A stretch of DNA of 46,553 nt from an uncultured Candidatus Saccharibacteria bacterium (lineage in GTDB: Bacteria; Patescibacteriota; Minisyncoccia; Phycocordibacterales; UBA9973). Numbering within the stretch: position 1 is the stretch's first letter; the number at the start of each line of letters is the position of its first letter. Where the stretch lies: the NCBI GenBank assembly GCA_964426555.1, contig CAYRQJ010000002.1, forward strand, positions 114,837 through 161,389, in the 5' to 3' direction. Under the pieces are notes generated by a model that saw nothing but the letters and a program-made list of their open reading frames with translations, had not been told where the DNA came from and did no database searches. The position numbers were made by a program, and so were the translations under genes. Positions 8,074 through 41,971 of the stretch are shown here, piece by piece.

Positions 8074-8076
8074 AGT

Positions 8077-8087
8077 TGTGGATAACT
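8077..8087. promoter_or_regulatory. DnaA-box-like 11-mer TGTGGATAACT (copy 1 of 3)
   Basis: Contains the perfect DnaA-box 9-mer TGTGGATAA (TTATCCACA on the other strand). Lies in the 80-bp divergent gap 67 nt upstream of the ATG at 8154. A candidate promoter TTTACT(8091-8096)-N18-TATAAT(8115-8120) lies just downstream. Confidence 0.3.
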
Positions 8088-8153
8088 TGCTTTACTTTTC
8101 GGTTTTTGTTCGGTTATAATGTAATTGTAGCAAAAGTAGATTTTTATTGCAAT

Positions 8154-10001
8154 ATGTCAACACTAACAAAAAAACAAAAACAAGTCTTTGATTTTATAAA
8201 CACTTATATAGCCGAAAATGGTATCTCTCCTACTATGGATGAAATTAGAATAAATTTAAAATTAAAAGCAGTTTCTACTATACACGAACATATATTGTCT
8301 TTACAAAAAAAAGGTTTTTTATTTAAAGAAGTAAATTCGACAAGAGGAATTTTACCTAAAAAGGAAATAAAATCTATTATAGAAATTCCAATTCTTGGAA
8401 GAATTAAAGCTGGATATCCTCTTGAAGCAATAGAAGAAAAAGAAGGAACGATTTCTATTATAAATAATAAAATCAATTCACCAAAAGATTATTACGCTCT
8501 TAGGGTAGTTGGAGATTCCATGATAGATGACGGAATTTTTGATGGAGATATTGTGATTATAAAAAAACAGTCAACAGCTGATGATGGACAAACAGTTGTG
8601 GCTATAATTGATGAAAATGAAGCAACTCTAAAAAAAATTTATAGAGAAAAAAATCAATTTAGACTAGAACCAAGAAACCCAAATATGTTGCCTTTTTTTA
8701 GGAAAGAAGTAGAAATTAGAGGTATTGTAATTGAAATTATTAGAAATATTGAAACATCAAATATCTATAATTTAAAAAAATACAACGACTTAAAAAGTTT
8801 TTTTGATAAATTAAATTTCCAAAAAGAACATTTTGTAAATTCCAATGATATTTGTACACCAATGGGATGTGTTGAAGAAATGGTTAATATGATACCTGAA
8901 GATTTCTGGCTAACTAAAGGTTTAAAAATACTTGATCCATGTGCAGGTAATGGTAATTTTCATGCATATATTGCAACAAAAACTAATTTAAATAATTTAT
9001 ACTTCAATGAAATAAATAAAAAAAGAATTAATAATATTAAAAAAATCTTTGGTGATTCTGCAAAGATTACAGATAAGGATTTTTTACTATTTGACGAAAA
9101 AGAAGAATATGATTTAGTTGTAGCGAACCCACCTTATGCTAAATTTACAAATGGAGAAAGAACTGCCAAGAACCATAACTTATCTAGAGATTTTATACTA
9201 AAAGCTCTTAATGTTACAAAAAAAGATGGATATATTTTATTTATTGCGCCAGACAATTGGATGTCTTATGCTGATAATAATAAAATCCCGGAAATTTTAA
9301 GTAAATATCAATTTATTTATTTAAACATACATGGTGCAAAAAAATGGTTTCCTGGAGTTGGATCTTCTTTTACTTGGTTTTTGGTAAAAAAATCCCCAAA
9401 CCTTAAAAAATTTACTATATCTAACCATTATAAAATGCCACAAATTGATCAAGTATTATTAGAAAAAAATACGAAATTTATACCTCTTTATTATTCAAAT
9501 TTAGTTAAATCTATTATAAACAAAACCATAAATTCAGAAAAATTAAAATACAAAATTCAAACATCAAGTAATCTGCATAAATATACAAAAAAAGAATATT
9601 TTTCTAAAACAAAAGATTCAAAATTCAAATACAAAATACACCACACACCAAGTCAAACAATTTGGAGTAAAAGTCCACATATATATCAAAATGGGTGGAA
9701 AGTATTTATTTCTTTAACAAATCAATATAGTACTTTTATTGATGAGTGCGGAATGACACAAAGTATAGCTTTTATAAGATGTTCTTCAAAAAAAGAAGCG
9801 GAGGAAATTTCATTAAAATTAAATAATCCCGTATATTTATTTTTAAATAATATTACTAGATATGGCAATTTTAATAATATTAGAGTTTTGCAAAATTTCC
9901 CAGTGTATACAAATTTTAAATTTACAAAAGAAGAAAAAGATTTGATTAAAAAATTTAATAACCTATATTACAATAAAAATAGAGCGCGCTTATTTAACTA
10001 A
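8154..10001 (+). CDS. LexA repressor (wHTH + S24 autopeptidase) fused to a gamma-class N6-adenine DNA methyltransferase
   Basis: ATG at 8154 (the track start at 8076 is TTG). Residues 1-200 are LexA-like: LTKKQKQVFDFI...GISPTMDEI...HILSLQKKGF, cleavage context LGRIKAGYP (Ala86-Gly87), VVGDSM (Ser122) and EATLKK (Lys160). Residues ~230-615 are MTase-like: motif I ILDPCAGNGNFH and motif IV LVVANPPYA (NPPY codons from 9126). Confidence 0.8.
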   Translation: MSTLTKKQKQVFDFINTYIAENGISPTMDEIRINLKLKAVSTIHEHILSLQKKGFLFKEVNSTRGILPKKEIKSIIEIPILGRIKAGYPLEAIEEKEGTISIINNKINSPKDYYALRVVGDSMIDDGIFDGDIVIIKKQSTADDGQTVVAIIDENEATLKKIYREKNQFRLEPRNPNMLPFFRKEVEIRGIVIEIIRNIETSNIYNLKKYNDLKSFFDKLNFQKEHFVNSNDICTPMGCVEEMVNMIPEDFWLTKGLKILDPCAGNGNFHAYIATKTNLNNLYFNEINKKRINNIKKIFGDSAKITDKDFLLFDEKEEYDLVVANPPYAKFTNGERTAKNHNLSRDFILKALNVTKKDGYILFIAPDNWMSYADNNKIPEILSKYQFIYLNIHGAKKWFPGVGSSFTWFLVKKSPNLKKFTISNHYKMPQIDQVLLEKNTKFIPLYYSNLVKSIINKTINSEKLKYKIQTSSNLHKYTKKEYFSKTKDSKFKYKIHHTPSQTIWSKSPHIYQNGWKVFISLTNQYSTFIDECGMTQSIAFIRCSSKKEAEEISLKLNNPVYLFLNNITRYGNFNNIRVLQNFPVYTNFKFTKEEKDLIKKFNNLYYNKNRARLFN

Positions 10002-14864: not shown

Positions 14865-15818
14865 CTACTTGTCCCAATTAAAATTATTTCCATAGTGCCC
14901 CCATGTACATGTATCAGTAAATTTTACATTCTTTAAATTTAAAAATTCTCTTATTCCAGATGGAGACAAATCATAATCGGTAATTTCAATAGTCTTTTCT
15001 AGATTATTTTTATCTACTATTACTGCTTGCGCCATTACGGGTTCGGCTTTACCAATAGCATAAGCTAATTTTACAAATACATGCTGTGTATTATATTTTT
15101 GTAAATAGTCTACTGCAATTTTGCGTGCCATATATGCCCCACTACGGTCTACTTTTGTATAATCTTTACCACTGTATGACCCACCACCAATAGAGATTTC
15201 TGGACCATAGTTGTCGACTATTAGTTTGCGTCCTGAAAGACCAGTGTCTGCATCGAACCCGCCCATAGACCACTCTCCAGCGGGATTGATTAAATATTCT
15301 TGCGCTGGGATTATAGTTTTTACCAAATCTAGTAGCTCTGCACTATTTGAATTTTGGAAACTGGCAACTACAGTTTTGACACTGCCGTCGTCATTTATTG
15401 TAACCTGAGTTTTACCATCGTATGGGTACACTGCATAAATCTTGCGACACAAATTACGAGCTAATTCGTATTCCAATGGAACAAAATTGGACGTACTAGA
15501 CGTTGCATAGCCACACATGATGCCTTGGTCTCCGGCGCCACCAGTATCAACCCCACGAGCAATTTCAGGGCTTTGCAAAGCAATATTTGAGATAACTCGA
15601 TAATCTATACCTACAATATTTTGTACAATACTTTCTATGTTTATATTTGCACTACTGGTAACTTCACCATTTATAGTTACAAGATTGTGTCCACCCATTA
15701 CTTCTACAGCAACACGGCTATTCAAGTCTTCGGCTAAATACGCATCTAAAATAGAATCTGCAATATAGTCACAAATTTTATCTGGATGTAGAGGGCTTAC
15801 AAATTCTGCTGTTTTCAT
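14865..15818 (-). CDS. metK: S-adenosylmethionine synthetase
   Basis: Start moved to the ATG at 15816-15818 (MKTAEFVSPLHPDKICDYIADSILD). GAGDQGIMCGYA motif present. The track's 51-codon N-terminal extension runs through the riboswitch. Confidence 0.85.
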   Translation of the reverse strand: MKTAEFVSPLHPDKICDYIADSILDAYLAEDLNSRVAVEVMGGHNLVTINGEVTSSANINIESIVQNIVGIDYRVISNIALQSPEIARGVDTGGAGDQGIMCGYATSSTSNFVPLEYELARNLCRKIYAVYPYDGKTQVTINDDGSVKTVVASFQNSNSAELLDLVKTIIPAQEYLINPAGEWSMGGFDADTGLSGRKLIVDNYGPEISIGGGSYSGKDYTKVDRSGAYMARKIAVDYLQKYNTQHVFVKLAYAIGKAEPVMAQAVIVDKNNLEKTIEITDYDLSPSGIREFLNLKNVKFTDTCTWGHYGNNFNWDK

Positions 15819-15861
15819 ATTATTACTTGAACGAACATTTTTAAAAAATGTTTTAGTTATT

Positions 15862-15997
15862 AAAAAATTCCTCTTAATGAGGAAAGATAGAGAGTACAAT
15901 ATCTTTCCGAAATAACGGTTTGGAATTAGCACCTTTGCAAAAGCCAGGTTGCTGTGGGGTCTATGAGCCAAATCTCTACCACCACTCTTGATACAAT
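15862..15997 (-). promoter_or_regulatory. SAM-I (S-box) riboswitch with terminator, in the metK leader
   Basis: Minus strand: UAUCAAGAGUGGUGGUAGAGAUUUGGCUCAUAGACCCCACAGCAACC...AAGGUGCUAAUUCCAAACCGUUAUUUCGGAAAGAUA matches the SAM-I core. Followed by TTCCTC-ATTAA-GAGGAA plus T6 (15862-15884). Confidence 0.8.
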
Positions 15998-21111: not shown

Positions 21112-21975
21112 TTAGTTTTCTATTATTTTAGTAATTCCTGGTAATGGGTGAGACAATGCTTCTACTGCAAAACCAGCTGCATTGTGGTGGCCACCACCGC
21201 CATATTTGCCTGCAATTGCAGACACGTCTACGCTACCATCTCCACGCAAAGAGCATTTCCAGCCCCATTTTTCGTAATTAAAGATTAAAGCAAATGGACC
21301 ATGTTTAGAAGACAGTAAATGACCCAAATCGCTGGCTACTATATTATTAGCATTTACAGCATAAATTGTATAGCCTTCAAATTCTACAAGCTCAGCTTTG
21401 TTGGCAAAATATTCAACTTGTCTTTCATGGACACTGCGTAGTAGTGTACCTTGTTCTAATATTTTTAAATACCCATCTTCGGTTTCTAAATCTTTTGCAA
21501 TTTTAGAATATACAGCAAAATCAAAATTTGAAACATGAATATAAGCAATTATTGATTTTGCATCCAGTAGAGAAAATCGATACAAATCACCATCTTCAAT
21601 ATATTCGATTAATTTTGGTATTTTTTCATTTGGGAAAAAATATTCCCAAGCTAAATATGCTGCACTATGGTCGTTGTTAAAAACATGTTCATTTATAGAA
21701 GTTACATTATCGCGAGCAGAAATATGGTGATCAATTATTACTAATTTTTTTGCCTTTTGTTCTAAATCTAATAAAACATCTTTAGGGTAAGAATAATCAA
21801 TAATGTAAACTGTTTTACCGTCTAAATTGACATGGTAATGGTCTCGATCTTCCGCAGGAATATACGACGCACTGTCTCCAAATTTTTGATATGCAACCCA
21901 AGCACCAGCAAATCCATCACTGCATTTTGCGTGATAAATTACTACGATATCTGTTGTTATAATTAAGGAATCCAT
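21112..21975 (-). CDS. DHH/DHHA1 family phosphoesterase
   Basis: IYHAKCSDGFAGAW, IIDHH and GGGGHHNAAGF motifs. Confidence 0.8.
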   Translation of the reverse strand: MDSLIITTDIVVIYHAKCSDGFAGAWVAYQKFGDSASYIPAEDRDHYHVNLDGKTVYIIDYSYPKDVLLDLEQKAKKLVIIDHHISARDNVTSINEHVFNNDHSAAYLAWEYFFPNEKIPKLIEYIEDGDLYRFSLLDAKSIIAYIHVSNFDFAVYSKIAKDLETEDGYLKILEQGTLLRSVHERQVEYFANKAELVEFEGYTIYAVNANNIVASDLGHLLSSKHGPFALIFNYEKWGWKCSLRGDGSVDVSAIAGKYGGGGHHNAAGFAVEALSHPLPGITKIIEN

Positions 21976-22092
21976 CCCGTTAGAAACAGATCGCGATCAA
22001 TTCACGATTTTGTTTTATTATATTTATAATTTTATTTTTATTTAAATTCATATTTCTATTTTTATATTATTGCGATCGCGGTTTCTAACGGG
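21976..22092. repeat. palindromic intergenic element, long copy 1
   Basis: CCCGTTAGAAAC-AGATCGCGATC ... GCGATCGCG-GTTTCTAACGGG; AT-rich interior. Abuts the ATG at 21975. Confidence 0.8.
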
Positions 22093-22100
22093 ACCAATTA

Positions 22101-29537: not shown

Positions 29538-30287
29538 TTATACTGTATTAATTGGCTCACATATTATATCACCATAATTCTGATTTTGCTCTGCATCCAT
29601 TAGACCACCTCGAACTAATTCTAAAACTGCAAGGAAACTAACAATTACAGATACTTTCATTTCTTTAGGAGTCATTTCTTTGAAATATACAGACTGTGCT
29701 AAAGAATTAAAAGATGTAGCCTGTTTTACTGATTTTAAATTATTTGTGATTTTAGTAATCATTTCTTCCAGTGTCATTACACGCAGAATTTGAATTTTGG
29801 GTAATTTTTCTTTATCGACAGGTAGTTTGTTTATGACTTCGTTTGCAATATTTAAAAGATTTTCTATGTTTACATCAGCATGTGGAATAAAACTGACTGT
29901 ATTTATATTTTTTCTTTTAACAAATTCTAAATAAGGTGAAGGTTTTGAATTTAAATAACTATTTGATCCATTGCGAAGCATTTCCAATAATCGTAATCTT
30001 TCTTCTAGATTATTTTTTGCAGAGTCTACTTCTTCGTCTGCAATACTGCTACCGTCCAGCAACATTTTTGATTTTAGTAATACCAATGTTGCAGCAATAG
30101 ACAAAAACAAAGTTACATTGGGTAAATCTTCTCCAATGTGGTCTTGGACATAAGCTACATATTCGTCGGTAACTTCGGCTAACGATACGTCGCTAATATG
30201 CAGTTTTCTTTTTTCTACAAGCGAAAGCAAGACATCAAGCGGTCCTTCAAATTTCTCTGTTTTAACTTGATAAATTGTTTCGTCCAT
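29538..30287 (-). CDS. scpA: segregation and condensation protein A
   Basis: FEGPLDVLLSLVEKRKLHISDVSLAEVTDEY. Confidence 0.85.
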   Translation of the reverse strand: MDETIYQVKTEKFEGPLDVLLSLVEKRKLHISDVSLAEVTDEYVAYVQDHIGEDLPNVTLFLSIAATLVLLKSKMLLDGSSIADEEVDSAKNNLEERLRLLEMLRNGSNSYLNSKPSPYLEFVKRKNINTVSFIPHADVNIENLLNIANEVINKLPVDKEKLPKIQILRVMTLEEMITKITNNLKSVKQATSFNSLAQSVYFKEMTPKEMKVSVIVSFLAVLELVRGGLMDAEQNQNYGDIICEPINTV

Positions 30288-30405
30288 CCCGTTAGAAGCA
30301 GATCGCGATCAAATCACAACCTAATTTACTAATATTTATAATTTTATTTTTATTTAAAAACATATATTCATTAAAATTTCTATTGCGATCGCGGCTTCTA
30401 ACGGG
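30288..30405. repeat. palindromic intergenic element, long copy 2
   Basis: CCCGTTAGAAGC-AGATCGCGATC ... GCGATCGCG-GCTTCTAACGGG. Shares interior blocks with copy 1. Abuts the scpA ATG at 30287. Confidence 0.8.
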
Positions 30406-30414
30406 ATCCATCTT

Positions 30415-31755
30415 CTACTCACTAAGTCTTTTATCGATACGGTTAATGTCTCTTGGGAACAACGTTGCTTCTTTGATATTTGGAATATTTAAGAATCGTG
30501 CAGTTAATCTTTCTAGCCCCATAGCCAGTCCACCATGTGGCGGTAAGCCATATTTAAAAGCTTGAAGATAAAAATCAAATTTTTCTGGATCTAGACCTTT
30601 GAATTTCATTTTTTCTACAAGTTCTTCGTAGCGGTGTTCACGTTGGTTACCACTGAGTAATTCTAAGCCTCGGAATAATAAGTCGTAACATTTTGTACGG
30701 CCAGGAACAGCATCGTCGTCCATTGCGTAAAATGGTCTTTTAGTACGAGGATAGTTTGTGATAAATATAAAATCAGAATTAAATTCTTTCTTTGCGTATT
30801 CACATAGCCAGCGTTCATGCTCAGGTTCTAAATCCGGTTCTTGTGTACAGTCTACGCCGGTAACTTTAGAAATTAATTCCTGAGCTTCAGTTAATTTCAT
30901 AGTTGGAAAAATTTCACCTTGTGGCATTAGCGGGAATTCTGCACCAAGAATTGCAAATTCTGGGCTACATTTTTCTTTTAGTTCGTTTAAAATGTAGCGT
31001 AGTAAATTTGTTTCCAATTTCATAACATCTTCTGGACCATCAATAAATCCCATTTCTAGATCAAGAGATGTGTATTCGTTAAGATGTCTTGTTGTTGCGT
31101 GTTTTTCAGCACGGAAAACGTTGGTAACTGTGTAAGCACGTTCAAATACACCCACCATCATTTGCTTGTACAATTGTGGACTAGTAGCCAAGTACGCTGT
31201 TTTGTCGTAAAAATAATCCAGTTTAAAAGTTTCGGTACCGCCTTCGGCATCGCCACCAACAAGAGCTGGCGCCCGAAATTCGGTAAAATCTTCTTTATTT
31301 AGAAAGTTACGAAAAGATTCTAAAATAGTTGCTTGAACTTTAAAAATTGCATTTTCTCTTTTTCGGCGTAGTGTTAACGGACGATAATCTAAAAGAGTAT
31401 CTAAATTTAATTCTGCATCATTTGAAAAAGGTAATTCTTGAGATTTAGATAATACTGTAATACCAGTAACTTCTAATTCCACATCACCACCAACAATGTT
31501 GGGGTTGATGTTTTTTTCAGGTCTTTTGTTTACTATACCAGTGACACTTAGAACCCATTCAGGACGAATGTCTTTAGCTACGTCTAGTGCTTCTGTATGG
31601 TTTGGTAAGACTACACATTGCAGTATCCCAGACATGTCGCGCAGGTCGAAGAAAACCATTTTGCCTTGGTCACGTCGAATGTTGACCCAACCAGCCATGG
31701 TTACGGTATTCCCAACATTTTCACTTATATTCTTAACTAAAATTCTTCCTTTCAT
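30415..31755 (-). CDS. aspS: aspartate--tRNA ligase, archaeal/type-2 (probably non-discriminating)
   Basis: Start at the ATG 31753-31755 (MKGRILVKNISE). Class IIb motifs FRAEKHATTRHLNEYTSLDLEM and GGLAMGLERL. gatB is present in the window. Confidence 0.8.
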   Translation of the reverse strand: MKGRILVKNISENVGNTVTMAGWVNIRRDQGKMVFFDLRDMSGILQCVVLPNHTEALDVAKDIRPEWVLSVTGIVNKRPEKNINPNIVGGDVELEVTGITVLSKSQELPFSNDAELNLDTLLDYRPLTLRRKRENAIFKVQATILESFRNFLNKEDFTEFRAPALVGGDAEGGTETFKLDYFYDKTAYLATSPQLYKQMMVGVFERAYTVTNVFRAEKHATTRHLNEYTSLDLEMGFIDGPEDVMKLETNLLRYILNELKEKCSPEFAILGAEFPLMPQGEIFPTMKLTEAQELISKVTGVDCTQEPDLEPEHERWLCEYAKKEFNSDFIFITNYPRTKRPFYAMDDDAVPGRTKCYDLLFRGLELLSGNQREHRYEELVEKMKFKGLDPEKFDFYLQAFKYGLPPHGGLAMGLERLTARFLNIPNIKEATLFPRDINRIDKRLSE

Positions 31756-31777
31756 ATAAAGACATATTAACATAAAT

Positions 31778-31821
31778 CCCATTAGAAGTTTAGCTTTATA
31801 TAAAAAACTACTTCTAACGGG
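31778..31821. repeat. mini copy of the palindromic element (arms only)
   Basis: CCCATTAGAAGT-N20-ACTTCTAACGGG. On the minus-strand RNA the single arm mismatch becomes a G-U pair. Confidence 0.65.
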
Positions 31822-31846: not shown

Positions 31847-31895
31847 CCGCGTTAGAGGCAGAGATTCTTTATGATTCTCGTTGGCTCTAATGGGG
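31847..31895. repeat. degenerate relative of the palindromic element
   Basis: CCGCGTTAGAGGC ... GCTCTAATGGGG hairpin, 1 nt from the stop of the 31897-32157 gene. Confidence 0.5.
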
Positions 31896-41200: not shown

Positions 41201-41761
41201 TTAAAATTTAAATACTACAACTTTTGCTGGGCGTAGAACGCTGTCTTTTGTACGGTAACCTTTTTGACTAACGCTAGAAATTTTTCCGTCCATGTTTTCA
41301 TCTTCTGTTTGTACTGTCTCTACTGCATCATGTAAATTATGGTCTACATCGCTCCCTATATTCGGGTTAATAATTTCTACACCATTGTCTTGCAGAAATT
41401 GAATACCTTGCTGGTAAATATATTCCACTCCCATGCGCCAGTTTGCGTCTACATTATTCCAAGCATCGTTGTTAGCCATTGCCATATCAAAAGTATCTAG
41501 CATTTTTATAACGCCACCTGCTCCACGTTCAAACCCAATAGCACGAGACCGCGCAAGGCGAGATTCTTCGTCTTTTTTGTAGTTTAAAAAGTCAGCTCTT
41601 TCTCTTTGCCAATTTAGTAAATATTCTTCTTTTTCTTCTTTTAGTTTTTCTATTTTGTCTTTAGATTTGGCTAATTTAGATTCACCACTAAGACTGTTCC
41701 CGCCCGAATTTTCTTCGTCGGCTACAAATTCTACATCGTCAAAATTCTCATCTTGTGTCAT
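41201..41761 (-). CDS. grpE: nucleotide exchange factor GrpE
   Basis: 186 aa; acidic N-terminus, coiled coil, WQRERADFLNYKKD and C-terminal beta domain GYR..D.VLRPAKV. Confidence 0.85.
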   Translation of the reverse strand: MTQDENFDDVEFVADEENSGGNSLSGESKLAKSKDKIEKLKEEKEEYLLNWQRERADFLNYKKDEESRLARSRAIGFERGAGGVIKMLDTFDMAMANNDAWNNVDANWRMGVEYIYQQGIQFLQDNGVEIINPNIGSDVDHNLHDAVETVQTEDENMDGKISSVSQKGYRTKDSVLRPAKVVVFKF

Positions 41762-41877
41762 CCCGTTAGAAGCAGGTCGCGATCTATTTTTTATAGAGCG
41801 TTTCCGTACTTGATTAATATACTACTAAATCTGTAATTCGCCCGTTATTGAATACCGTGACCGCGGCTTCTAACGGG
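41762..41877. repeat. palindromic intergenic element, long copy 3
   Basis: CCCGTTAGAAGC-AGGTCGCGATC ... GTGACCGCG-GCTTCTAACGGG. Interior unrelated to copies 1 and 2. Abuts the grpE ATG at 41761. Confidence 0.75.
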
Positions 41878-41971
41878 ACATATACTGCTATTATACTGAT
41901 TTTTGATAAAAAGAAAACCGCCACAACAACCTCTCTCTTATCTCTCCTGACCAGGAGAGAAGATTAAAGAT

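Follow-up and report, generated by a model that had tools for sequence, protein, structure and literature searches.

Short sequences closed by inverted termini recur between the housekeeping genes of an uncultured Candidatus Saccharibacteria bacterium, and the question they raise is what they are and how the genes beside them tolerate their presence. In order to answer it, we analysed a stretch of 46,553 nucleotides (contig CAYRQJ010000002.1, positions 114,837 to 161,389, hereafter the window), in which an earlier note had described three copies of about 117 nt together with a 44-nt mini copy. The gene content of the window is of the Candidate Phyla Radiation (CPR)/Patescibacteria type (GatB, Obg, FtsW, MraY, ScpA/B and a short AspRS; GC ~ 33%). 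The best explanation of the observations as a whole, and one which we consider likely, is that the window elements are MITE-type copies (MITE, a miniature transposable element bounded by inverted repeats) of a very small mobile element, with a full form carrying a GIY-YIG gene, insertion at start codons and translational coupling to the host gene. Two parts of this explanation are well supported, namely that the window copies belong to a cross-phylum family targeting start codons and are both mobile and non-autonomous, and that the coding form of the family is a 280-bp GIY-YIG gene.

The coordinates and sequences of the three long copies and of the mini copy were confirmed. Copy 1 occupies 21975..22093 (core 21976-22092 plus a terminal T/A pair), copy 2, between aspS and scpA, 30287..30406 (core 30288-30405) and copy 3, at the grpE start, 41761..41878 (core 41762-41877), all of them on the minus strand, which is also the strand of the genes around every copy. 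The 46.5-kb window holds five members of the family in total, the three long ones (116-118 nt) and two decayed minis. The 12-bp perfect inverted repeat described previously is present but its true extent is one base pair longer (T...A), and with this T/A pair the terminal repeat is perfect over 13 bp in copies 2 and 3. The 12-mer CCCGTTAGAAGC gave 7 matches at no more than one mismatch, every one of them an element end, for ~ 0.2 expected (2 x 46.5 kb). Block comparison agrees that copies 1 and 2 have homologous interiors and that copy 3 shares only their ends: interior blocks are common to copies 1 and 2, and copy 3 is alike for only ~ 25 nt per end, with the same termini and second stem (as a CGCGGTC/GATCGCG variant) around an unrelated interior. 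The octamer GCGATCGC is confined to copies 1 and 2 as well (2 matches versus 0.09 expected in the window). A cyanobacterial HIP1 origin, which this octamer had brought to mind, was ruled out, given that the gene content and the homologues are CPR-type and that the octamer occurs only within the elements.

Read on the minus strand, the 3' end of every long copy is the ATG of the next gene (DHH/DHHA1 at 21975, ScpA at 30287 and GrpE at 41761), the last base of each copy being the A of this ATG (21975 for copy 1, 30287 for copy 2). The left ends of copies 1 and 2 lie 8-9 nt past the stop of the upstream gene, and a host -10 box TATAAT stands near copy 3 at 41895-41890 (minus strand). The genes among which the elements are situated are housekeeping genes. 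Copy 2 is flanked by an exact 4-bp duplication, TGGA (plus-strand tcca at 30407-30410 and 30283-30286). This abutment on the start codon, the duplicated start codon upstream, a fixed orientation and a coding, autonomous-looking form are features beyond those described before.

Species-representative genomes were then scanned with the pattern CCCGTTAGAAR-N80-110-YTTCTAACGGG, and the further copies sought in other genomes were found at no fewer than 120 loci. Termini of the form Y-CCCGTTAGAA...TTCTAACGGG-R are found at these loci, most of which belong to Patescibacteria; among the matches listed are the CPR lineages Saccharibacteria, Nomura-, Kaiser-, Nealson-, Jorgensen-, Levyi-, Berkel- and Kerfeldbacteria and others, as well as, outside the CPR, a few Omnitrophota, Planctomycetota and Deltaproteobacteria. 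Such repeats had been called unexpected in a streamlined genome, a statement which does not hold since the family is centred on streamlined CPR genomes. The termini are 13-14-bp inverted repeats, Y-CCCGTTAGAA-R-Y... / ...R-Y-TTCTAACGGG-R, and short members of 24-77 nt are found outside the window too.

Counts were made on 145 elements from those loci (among the matches listed). Adjoining CCCG/CGGG, 79 elements have the pair T...A and 59 have C...G; owing to this pairing the outermost base was counted as part of the inverted repeat. A direct repeat of exactly 4 nt flanks 94 of the 145 elements, with 3 nt in 13 and 5 nt in 4; it represents a target-site duplication and, hence, the elements are inserted DNA. 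The 4-bp duplications are mostly TGAA or TGGA, from ATGAA or ATGGA (at start codons TGAA 46, TGGA 11, TGAG 7), and an ATG or GTG stands directly against exactly one end in 107/145 elements. Furthermore, the upstream flank is a copy of the gene's own first 5-6 nt (ATGGAT/ATGGAT, ATGAGT/ATGAGT, ATGTAT/ATGTAT, ATGCGT/ATGCGC, ATGGGT/ATGGGT), and the reconstructed target logo reads A98 T100 G100 R R with no other position conserved. The last element base (A or G) and the duplicated TG together restore an ATG or GTG; because this last base rebuilds the codon, "covariation" is seen between the start codon and the base preceding the left end (AT/AT 49, AC/GT 28, GT/AT 21). The preferred site is therefore written A|TGRR at a start codon, other sites being TTGA in TTGACA -35 boxes, TATG and TAAA. 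Pairs of termini flanked by target duplications fall into just two size classes, 100-130 and 270-290 bp. A translated in-frame insert was considered for the short class and ruled out: lengths are spread over all three residues modulo 3, hence are not restricted to multiples of three, and most interiors contain stops.

Comparison with relatives revealed empty sites. In L202, which forms part of a metagenome contig (L202/L203) sharing synteny and 86-97% identity with the window, copies 1 and 3 and both minis are missing, that is four of the five window members. The DHH site of L202 is element-free, the holin stop TAG being followed by TA and then by ATGGAAAAT; at the grpE site TATAATAGCAGT leads directly into ATGACA, and at the place of mini copy 2 a single CTAATTAAAG is found without element. 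At the scpA site, L202/L203 retain 7 nt, TAACGGG, which correspond to the tail of the right terminus and abut ATGGAC (L202 9992-10000). This remnant may be either the footprint of an excision or deletion, or a sign of insertion before the split of the two lineages. In more distant relatives (L204-L207) the scpA site is clean, with the aspS stop, 1-2 nt and then ATGGAY. Presence/absence polymorphism between related genomes is one mark of a MITE, and the structural marks, i.e. terminal inverted repeats, a target duplication of fixed length, small size, a non-coding interior and multiple copies, are found as well. The layout had been called REPIN/MITE-like, and the inverted termini, duplications, copies and empty sites uphold the MITE half of this description.

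The two minis are decayed members. Mini copy 1 (31778..31821, minus strand) is the 44-nt hairpin CCCGTTAGAAGT...ACTTCTAATGGG, situated 22 nt upstream of 31755, where aspS truly starts, and its target duplication is not clear. Mini copy 2 (31848..31894, minus strand), CGCGTTAGAGGC...GGCTCTAATGGG, has TTAAT on both flanks and a GAGGC terminus variant which is also present in the coding elements L159 and L186. Regarding the gene beside them, comparison with L202 places the true aspS start at the ATG at 31755 (MKGRILV...), and the longest aspS open reading frame (ORF; 30415-31782, minus strand) starts at an ATG arising inside mini copy 1 (CCCATT variant).

The complete form of the family measures 278-284 bp and is filled, from terminus to terminus, by a single ORF encoding a GIY-YIG nuclease of ~ 90 residues that belongs to the UPF0213/Slx1 branch. 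Longer terminus pairs (L095 6222-6501, 280 bp; L104 3889-4164, 276 bp; and L053) hold one small ORF each; coding-form ORFs match the Pfam GIY-YIG family PF01541 with E-values of 2e-17 and 4e-16, and a sub-threshold NCBIfam grpIintron_endo match was seen for the protein. The ORF of L095 starts at the displaced host ATG and reads into the left terminus (ATG AAC|CCC GTT AGA AGT, MNPVRS), as coding-form ORFs often do; its stop is the TAA of the right terminus (TTC TAA CGGG), which leaves 4 nt to the rebuilt GTG of the host. A protein search gave 956 homologues. In 77 of the best 120 an x-PVR[SN] start encoded by the left terminus is present, and most of these 120 end in ..DF or ..GF, corresponding to GAC/GGC TTC ahead of the terminus TAA. 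The protein has the features by which the GIY-YIG superfamily is recognised (GIY/YIG motifs with Arg, Glu and Asn); across 23 sequences no variation is seen at Y12, Y23, G25, R33, H37, E69 and N83, which include the catalytic Y, Y, R, H, E and N. Its nearest solved relatives are the UPF0213 structures 1ZG2 (E 9e-7) and 1YWL and the structure-specific nuclease Slx1 (7WME, 4XLG; E ~ 2e-3).

A second set of elements came from metagenome loci retrieved by protein similarity alone and is thus unbiased as to termini. Among these, 56 loci have termini, with an element length of 278-284 bp, and an exact 4-bp duplication flanks 33 of the 49 non-redundant elements (TGAA 12, TTGA 9 inside TTGACA, TATG 4, TAAA 3). 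The frame is intact, with at least 80 codons and an end at the terminus TAA, in 43/51 ORFs. A short element lies within 2.5 kb of a coding element in 16 of the 80 coding loci, and some short subfamilies match the coding type for ~ 10 extra bases, e.g. GCTTCCTAYYTCTAACGGG (L008, L009 and L119 versus L104 and L053). A search of lone termini and wide pairs for a larger parent element gave only nested or neighbouring elements; in ~ 1.1 Mb of fetched loci no pair of termini with matching duplication encloses more than ~ 330 bp, longer pairs being neighbouring elements. A phage vector was rejected: 2.9 million viral contigs gave 0 matches of coding size and 2 short ones, so that the elements are all but missing from them.

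Other loci show what else the termini and the nuclease family are associated with. The terminus pair at L092 5058-5165 contains a complete tRNA gene, so termini are able to enclose cargo besides the nuclease gene. In related metagenome contigs, L129/L138 and L139/L148 carry a coding element at the same site of the same host gene (ATGAAATACTTCGA...), the terminal pair being T...A in two of them and C...G in the other two, which gives the host an ATG or a GTG start. Small GIY-YIG ORFs without inverted termini are found beside tRNA genes at L002 4385-4705 and L022 6522-6824, and the ORF of L002 is preceded by a duplicate of the initial 23 nt of the tRNA, a hint that this protein family may have a second, tRNA-directed mode of insertion. 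GIY-YIG genes are among those inferred as transferred from Patescibacteria to other bacteria (PMC12455944), and unexplained GIY-YIG insertions have been noted in CPR rRNA genes (PMC11270868).

We next examined the pairing of the termini, for which the earlier note had claimed that the stem covaries. Positions 1-12 of the termini are complementary across the family. Positions 11-12 (A/G; C/T) of 165 MITE-size elements are variable yet 84-90% complementary versus 43-49% expected, and overall, with coding elements alike, 84-96% versus 43-57%. Within the 10-nt core of the protein-retrieved set, 7 changes are double and compensated (among them C1>T, G8>C, G8>A and A10>G) versus 2 single ones, both of which leave a G.T pair. 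The second stem of the window subfamily, CGCGRYC/GRYCGCG with a 3' bulge AYCT, covaries too (CGCGATC/GATCGCG versus CGCGGTC/GACCGCG). Hence the mirrored variation is real, but it is no proof of RNA, given that it is equal in the protein-coding elements and that no G.U bias accompanies it; the G.U-versus-A.C strand test on the sense strand is itself uninformative on RNA versus DNA. The variation rather suggests that pairing of the two ends may matter, either in a hairpin of single-stranded DNA or in a cruciform. As a detail of the same region, the 3' arm of the window subfamily reads GAYC-GC-GAYC-TG (21990-22003, 30302-30315, 41776-41789 and 25 related elements), and both of its Y's covary with the R of the 5' arm CGCGRTC, hence the 4-nt "bulge" AYCT covaries as well, which may point to two alternative pairing registers.

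These results bear on whether the elements could primarily be structured cis-acting RNAs between cistrons, such as a site for RNase III or other processing or an mRNA stabiliser, with the DNA repeats secondary. The folding is in keeping with it: compared with shuffled sequences, the long copies reach z -4.2 to -7.1 on either strand, mini copy 1 z -8.4 and mini copy 2 z -3.2, and in addition to the covarying stem 2, the elements are always co-transcribed with the downstream gene in a single orientation and hold the first bases of the start codon within the stem. However, target duplications, empty sites and a coding form indicate DNA insertion, the same complementarity is found in coding elements, the sense strand has no G.U excess, and no Rfam match was obtained: the covariance-model search of the window returned only tRNAs and the S-adenosylmethionine (SAM) riboswitch at gathering score, and at E <= 10 the elements gave just noise, from plant miRNA and mitochondrial rRNA. 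A primary identity as RNA, one of the two options left by the earlier note, is thus quite improbable in our view, although a secondary, co-opted RNA role is possible.

Given the compensated termini and the relatedness to Slx1-like and UPF0213 proteins, we infer that the GIY-YIG nuclease mobilises both the short and the coding forms and that it probably recognises the paired ends as a structure, a stem or cruciform, a structure-specific activity being suggested by the compensated termini. The main rival to this is that the window copies are ordinary MITEs moved by a DDE transposase encoded elsewhere (e.g. IS1380/piggyBac- or IS5-like), in which case the GIY-YIG protein would be a passenger or a helper cutting empty sites. 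Inverted termini with a fixed 4-bp duplication are the classic DDE signature, the ends of IS1380 and piggyBac begin CC(C) and they duplicate 4-5 bp, and the window holds no GIY-YIG gene. Against such a transposase, nothing larger than ~ 330 bp was found within terminus pairs in the ~ 1.1 Mb of fetched loci, although no genome-wide search for transposases was made; both termini lie within the GIY-YIG reading frame, which has remained open in most of the ORFs retrieved by protein similarity; and the core changes are compensated in both arms, which fits structure recognition better than two copies of a protein-binding site. We therefore regard the DDE alternative as unlikely, if serious.

Maintenance as REPIN-like doublets by a RAYT (IS200-like Y1 transposase) is far less credible. 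The elements do resemble REPINs in being hairpin-forming, ~ 100 nt long, intergenic and multi-copy, but a 4-bp target duplication is the rule here and the linked ORF is GIY-YIG and not Y1. REPINs and IS200/IS605, as published, make no target duplication, and REPINs depend on a RAYT. No RAYT-like ORF was seen among the window proteins checked, in a scan of the window which was not exhaustive. The REPIN half of the earlier description is thus not supported.

Translation starts in the window were considered as well. A Shine-Dalgarno-like motif is found in 2 of 60 window genes. Many genes show TATAAT, 6-9 nt and then ATG, which is the leaderless type, and others start within a few bases of the preceding stop; judged from these signals, leaderless and coupled translation would be the norm in this organism. 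Copy 2 contains an upstream ORF of 39 codons (MDPVRSRDRNRNFNEYMFLNKNKIINISKLGCDLIAICF; 30292..30411, minus strand) which starts at the displaced, relic scpA start ATGGAT, and crosses the whole element; its TAA, in the right repeat, is separated by 4 nt from the genuine scpA ATG. In copy 1, an ORF of 23 codons (MNLNKNKIINIIKQNRELIAICF; 21980..22051, minus strand) begins at an internal ATG (TATAAA-N9 ahead of it), closes at a TAA 4 nt before the DHH ATG, and has homologues in the same subfamily (L033, L066, L097, L101, L110, L117). No coupling ORF ending at the terminus TAA is present in copy 3. Among short elements in general, 46/100 have an ORF which begins with ATG, spans at least 10 codons and closes at the TAA situated 4 nt ahead of the host start, versus 19/200 in the same test on two control frames, and the encoded peptides are not conserved.

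These observations can be assembled into a mechanism. In such hosts a start codon would be functional when located at the mRNA 5' end or beside a terminating ribosome. Insertion leaves the host ATG and two further bases upstream, reading into the left terminus (ATG NNY CCC GTT AGA, M-x-P-V-R). Since these hosts are almost without Shine-Dalgarno sequences and start at 5'-terminal or stop-adjacent AUGs, a ribosome from the old AUG would translate the element and melt the terminal stem which holds the first bases of the start codon; it would then terminate within the right terminus, on the TAA located 4 nt ahead of the rebuilt AUG, and could restart on the host gene. The element would in this way borrow the expression signals of its host and do the least harm. 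The ~ 117-nt derivatives without gene keep the termini, the second stem and one fixed orientation. Termination-reinitiation driving the host gene, i.e. translational coupling, could thus explain why the elements are tolerated.

The orientation relative to the gene is indeed the same in 25/25 members of the window's subfamily and, as the termini are symmetric, it is attributed to selection on expression of the downstream gene. Inside copy 1 a sigma-70-like match faces the downstream gene (22017..22046, minus strand; TTTAAA-18-TATAAT, 10/12 consensus positions). It falls in a block common to copies 1 and 2 and is a consensus match only, in AT-rich sequence; that it is a functional promoter in both copies is only a lead, and since a promoter would clash with the upstream ORFs, at most one of the two would be in use. 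The same match could be taken for part of a switch, the elements then being recombination sites, either integron attC-like or an invertible promoter between inverted repeats, and GTTAGAA/TTCTAAC does resemble the attC core motifs GTTRRRY/RYYYAAC. But the surroundings are housekeeping genes, no integrase or invertase lies nearby, and an orientation fixed 25:0 argues against inversion, which leaves switch sites of any kind very improbable. An attC site in particular was ruled out: attC core sites are ordered 5' RYYYAAC ... GTTRRRY 3' in cassette arrays with IntI nearby, and here the order is reversed on both strands, 5' GTTAG...CTAAC 3' (GTTAGAA...TTCTAAC).

A number of points weigh against mobile elements driven by a GIY-YIG nuclease, inserted at start codons and tolerated through coupling. 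To our knowledge no GIY-YIG enzyme acts as a transposase; such nucleases cut DNA and are not known to join it, so that insertion would need host repair or a further step. A fixed-length target duplication with inverted termini is otherwise the mark of DDE transposases. No GIY-YIG ORF is found among the window ORFs, and the flanking duplication is imperfect in two of the window copies, copy 1 having TTGG-T upstream and A-TGGA downstream (TGG) and copy 3 TG alone. The terminus conservation of the short elements is by construction, as the collecting pattern required intact 10-nt termini. Moreover, the start-codon bias may reflect selection after insertion and not targeting, and about half of the short elements, copy 3 included, have no coupling ORF, so that coupling would not account for the translation of the genes downstream of them.

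The family was then compared with known systems. Its nearest behavioural analogues are the Correia/ERIC-type MITEs and, for "harmless insertion", the Rickettsia palindromic elements. Correia/NEMIS of Neisseria, ERIC/IRU, RUP and MITEAba12 are alike in their ~ 100-150 bp, terminal inverted repeats, short fixed duplication and many copies; MITEs of this type are also co-transcribed with genes as long hairpins, and some supply promoters. They differ in deriving from DDE insertion sequences, with mostly TA or longer duplications, and in being lineage-restricted, whereas the termini described here cross phyla. We know of no report of such a MITE that rebuilds start codons, keeps a fixed orientation or has a parent with a GIY-YIG gene only. 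The Rickettsia elements are palindromic selfish DNA of ~ 100-150 bp in a reduced genome, and they too spare the host product; they are inserted in frame inside coding regions and translated with the host protein, whereas the present elements enter at the start codon, bring a stop of their own and restore the start.

On the side of the enzymes, the GIY-YIG homing endonuclease genes (I-TevI, Seg proteins) are likewise selfish nuclease genes. They encode a long DNA-binding domain with one long cognate site and are copied by homologous repair without inverted termini or duplication, whereas here a bare catalytic domain of ~ 90 residues is found together with both termini and duplication; a homing gene was rejected, given that the targets are many unrelated genes sharing ~ 5 nt (ATGRR or similar). 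UPF0213/YhbQ and Slx1 have the same minimal GIY-YIG fold and invariant catalytic residues, but are described as cellular repair or uncharacterised proteins and not as cargo of a repeat-bounded element. IS1380/piggyBac resemble the elements in their 4-bp (4-5 bp), AT-rich duplication and CC(C) ends, and differ in encoding a DDE transposase of ~ 400-600 residues, none of which lies between termini in the ~ 1.1 Mb of loci. IS200/IS605 and REPIN-RAYT share very small size, hairpin ends and non-autonomous intergenic derivatives; their enzymes, however, are of the Y1 HUH type, no target is duplicated, and their palindromes are subterminal where those here are terminal. At ~ 700 bp, IS200 also exceeds the 280-bp coding form more than twofold in length. 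In the literature searched, which did not cover all journals, neither a repeat-bounded, target-duplicating element with GIY-YIG as sole gene nor the rebuilding of start codons was found. The earlier statement that no named family fits therefore stands, the family having turned up neither in Rfam nor in the papers searched and being apparently undescribed.

A stronger claim, on which our judgement is evenly divided, is that the 278-284-bp form is a self-sufficient transposon with the ~ 90-residue GIY-YIG nuclease as its only protein and thus a new enzymatic class, which would recognise its ends as a paired stem or cruciform and, in bacteria without Shine-Dalgarno sites, would have evolved to hijack start codons and translational coupling, the 117-nt copies being its MITEs and some of them co-opted as coupling or promoter adaptors for essential genes. 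Were this form self-sufficient, we would know of no smaller autonomous mobile element described from cells so far. A nuclease family would be newly tied to inverted-repeat, target-duplicating transposition in a 280-bp unit, raising the biochemical question of how a bare GIY-YIG domain could excise and insert DNA. Repeats in streamlined genomes would be explained by a near-harmless selfish element which rebuilds the start codon it splits and returns the ribosome to its host.

The elements also have practical uses. In CPR bacteria they indicate where a true start codon lies and that translation is leaderless or coupled, which is useful for gene calling, given that gene callers annotate "MNPVRS..." proteins and can mis-start host genes, as for the aspS ORF. 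Insertion polymorphism between close strains provides markers for populations of uncultured lineages. Furthermore, the scattered small ORFs annotated as "GIY-YIG nuclease family protein" and the insertions in CPR rRNA genes (PMC11270868) may have a common explanation.

Two further observations were made in the window. A 641-residue ORF at 8076-10001 (plus strand), in a low-GC block (24-27% GC), combines LexA DNA-binding, Peptidase_S24 and Eco57I-type methyltransferase domains and represents either an unusual fusion or two genes merged by the ORF caller. The SAM riboswitch (RF00162, 58 bits) at 15896-15997 (minus strand) overlaps the 5' end of a 368-aa ORF (14865-15971, TTG start) and the sequence just upstream; owing to this overlap, the true start of the ORF is probably located downstream.

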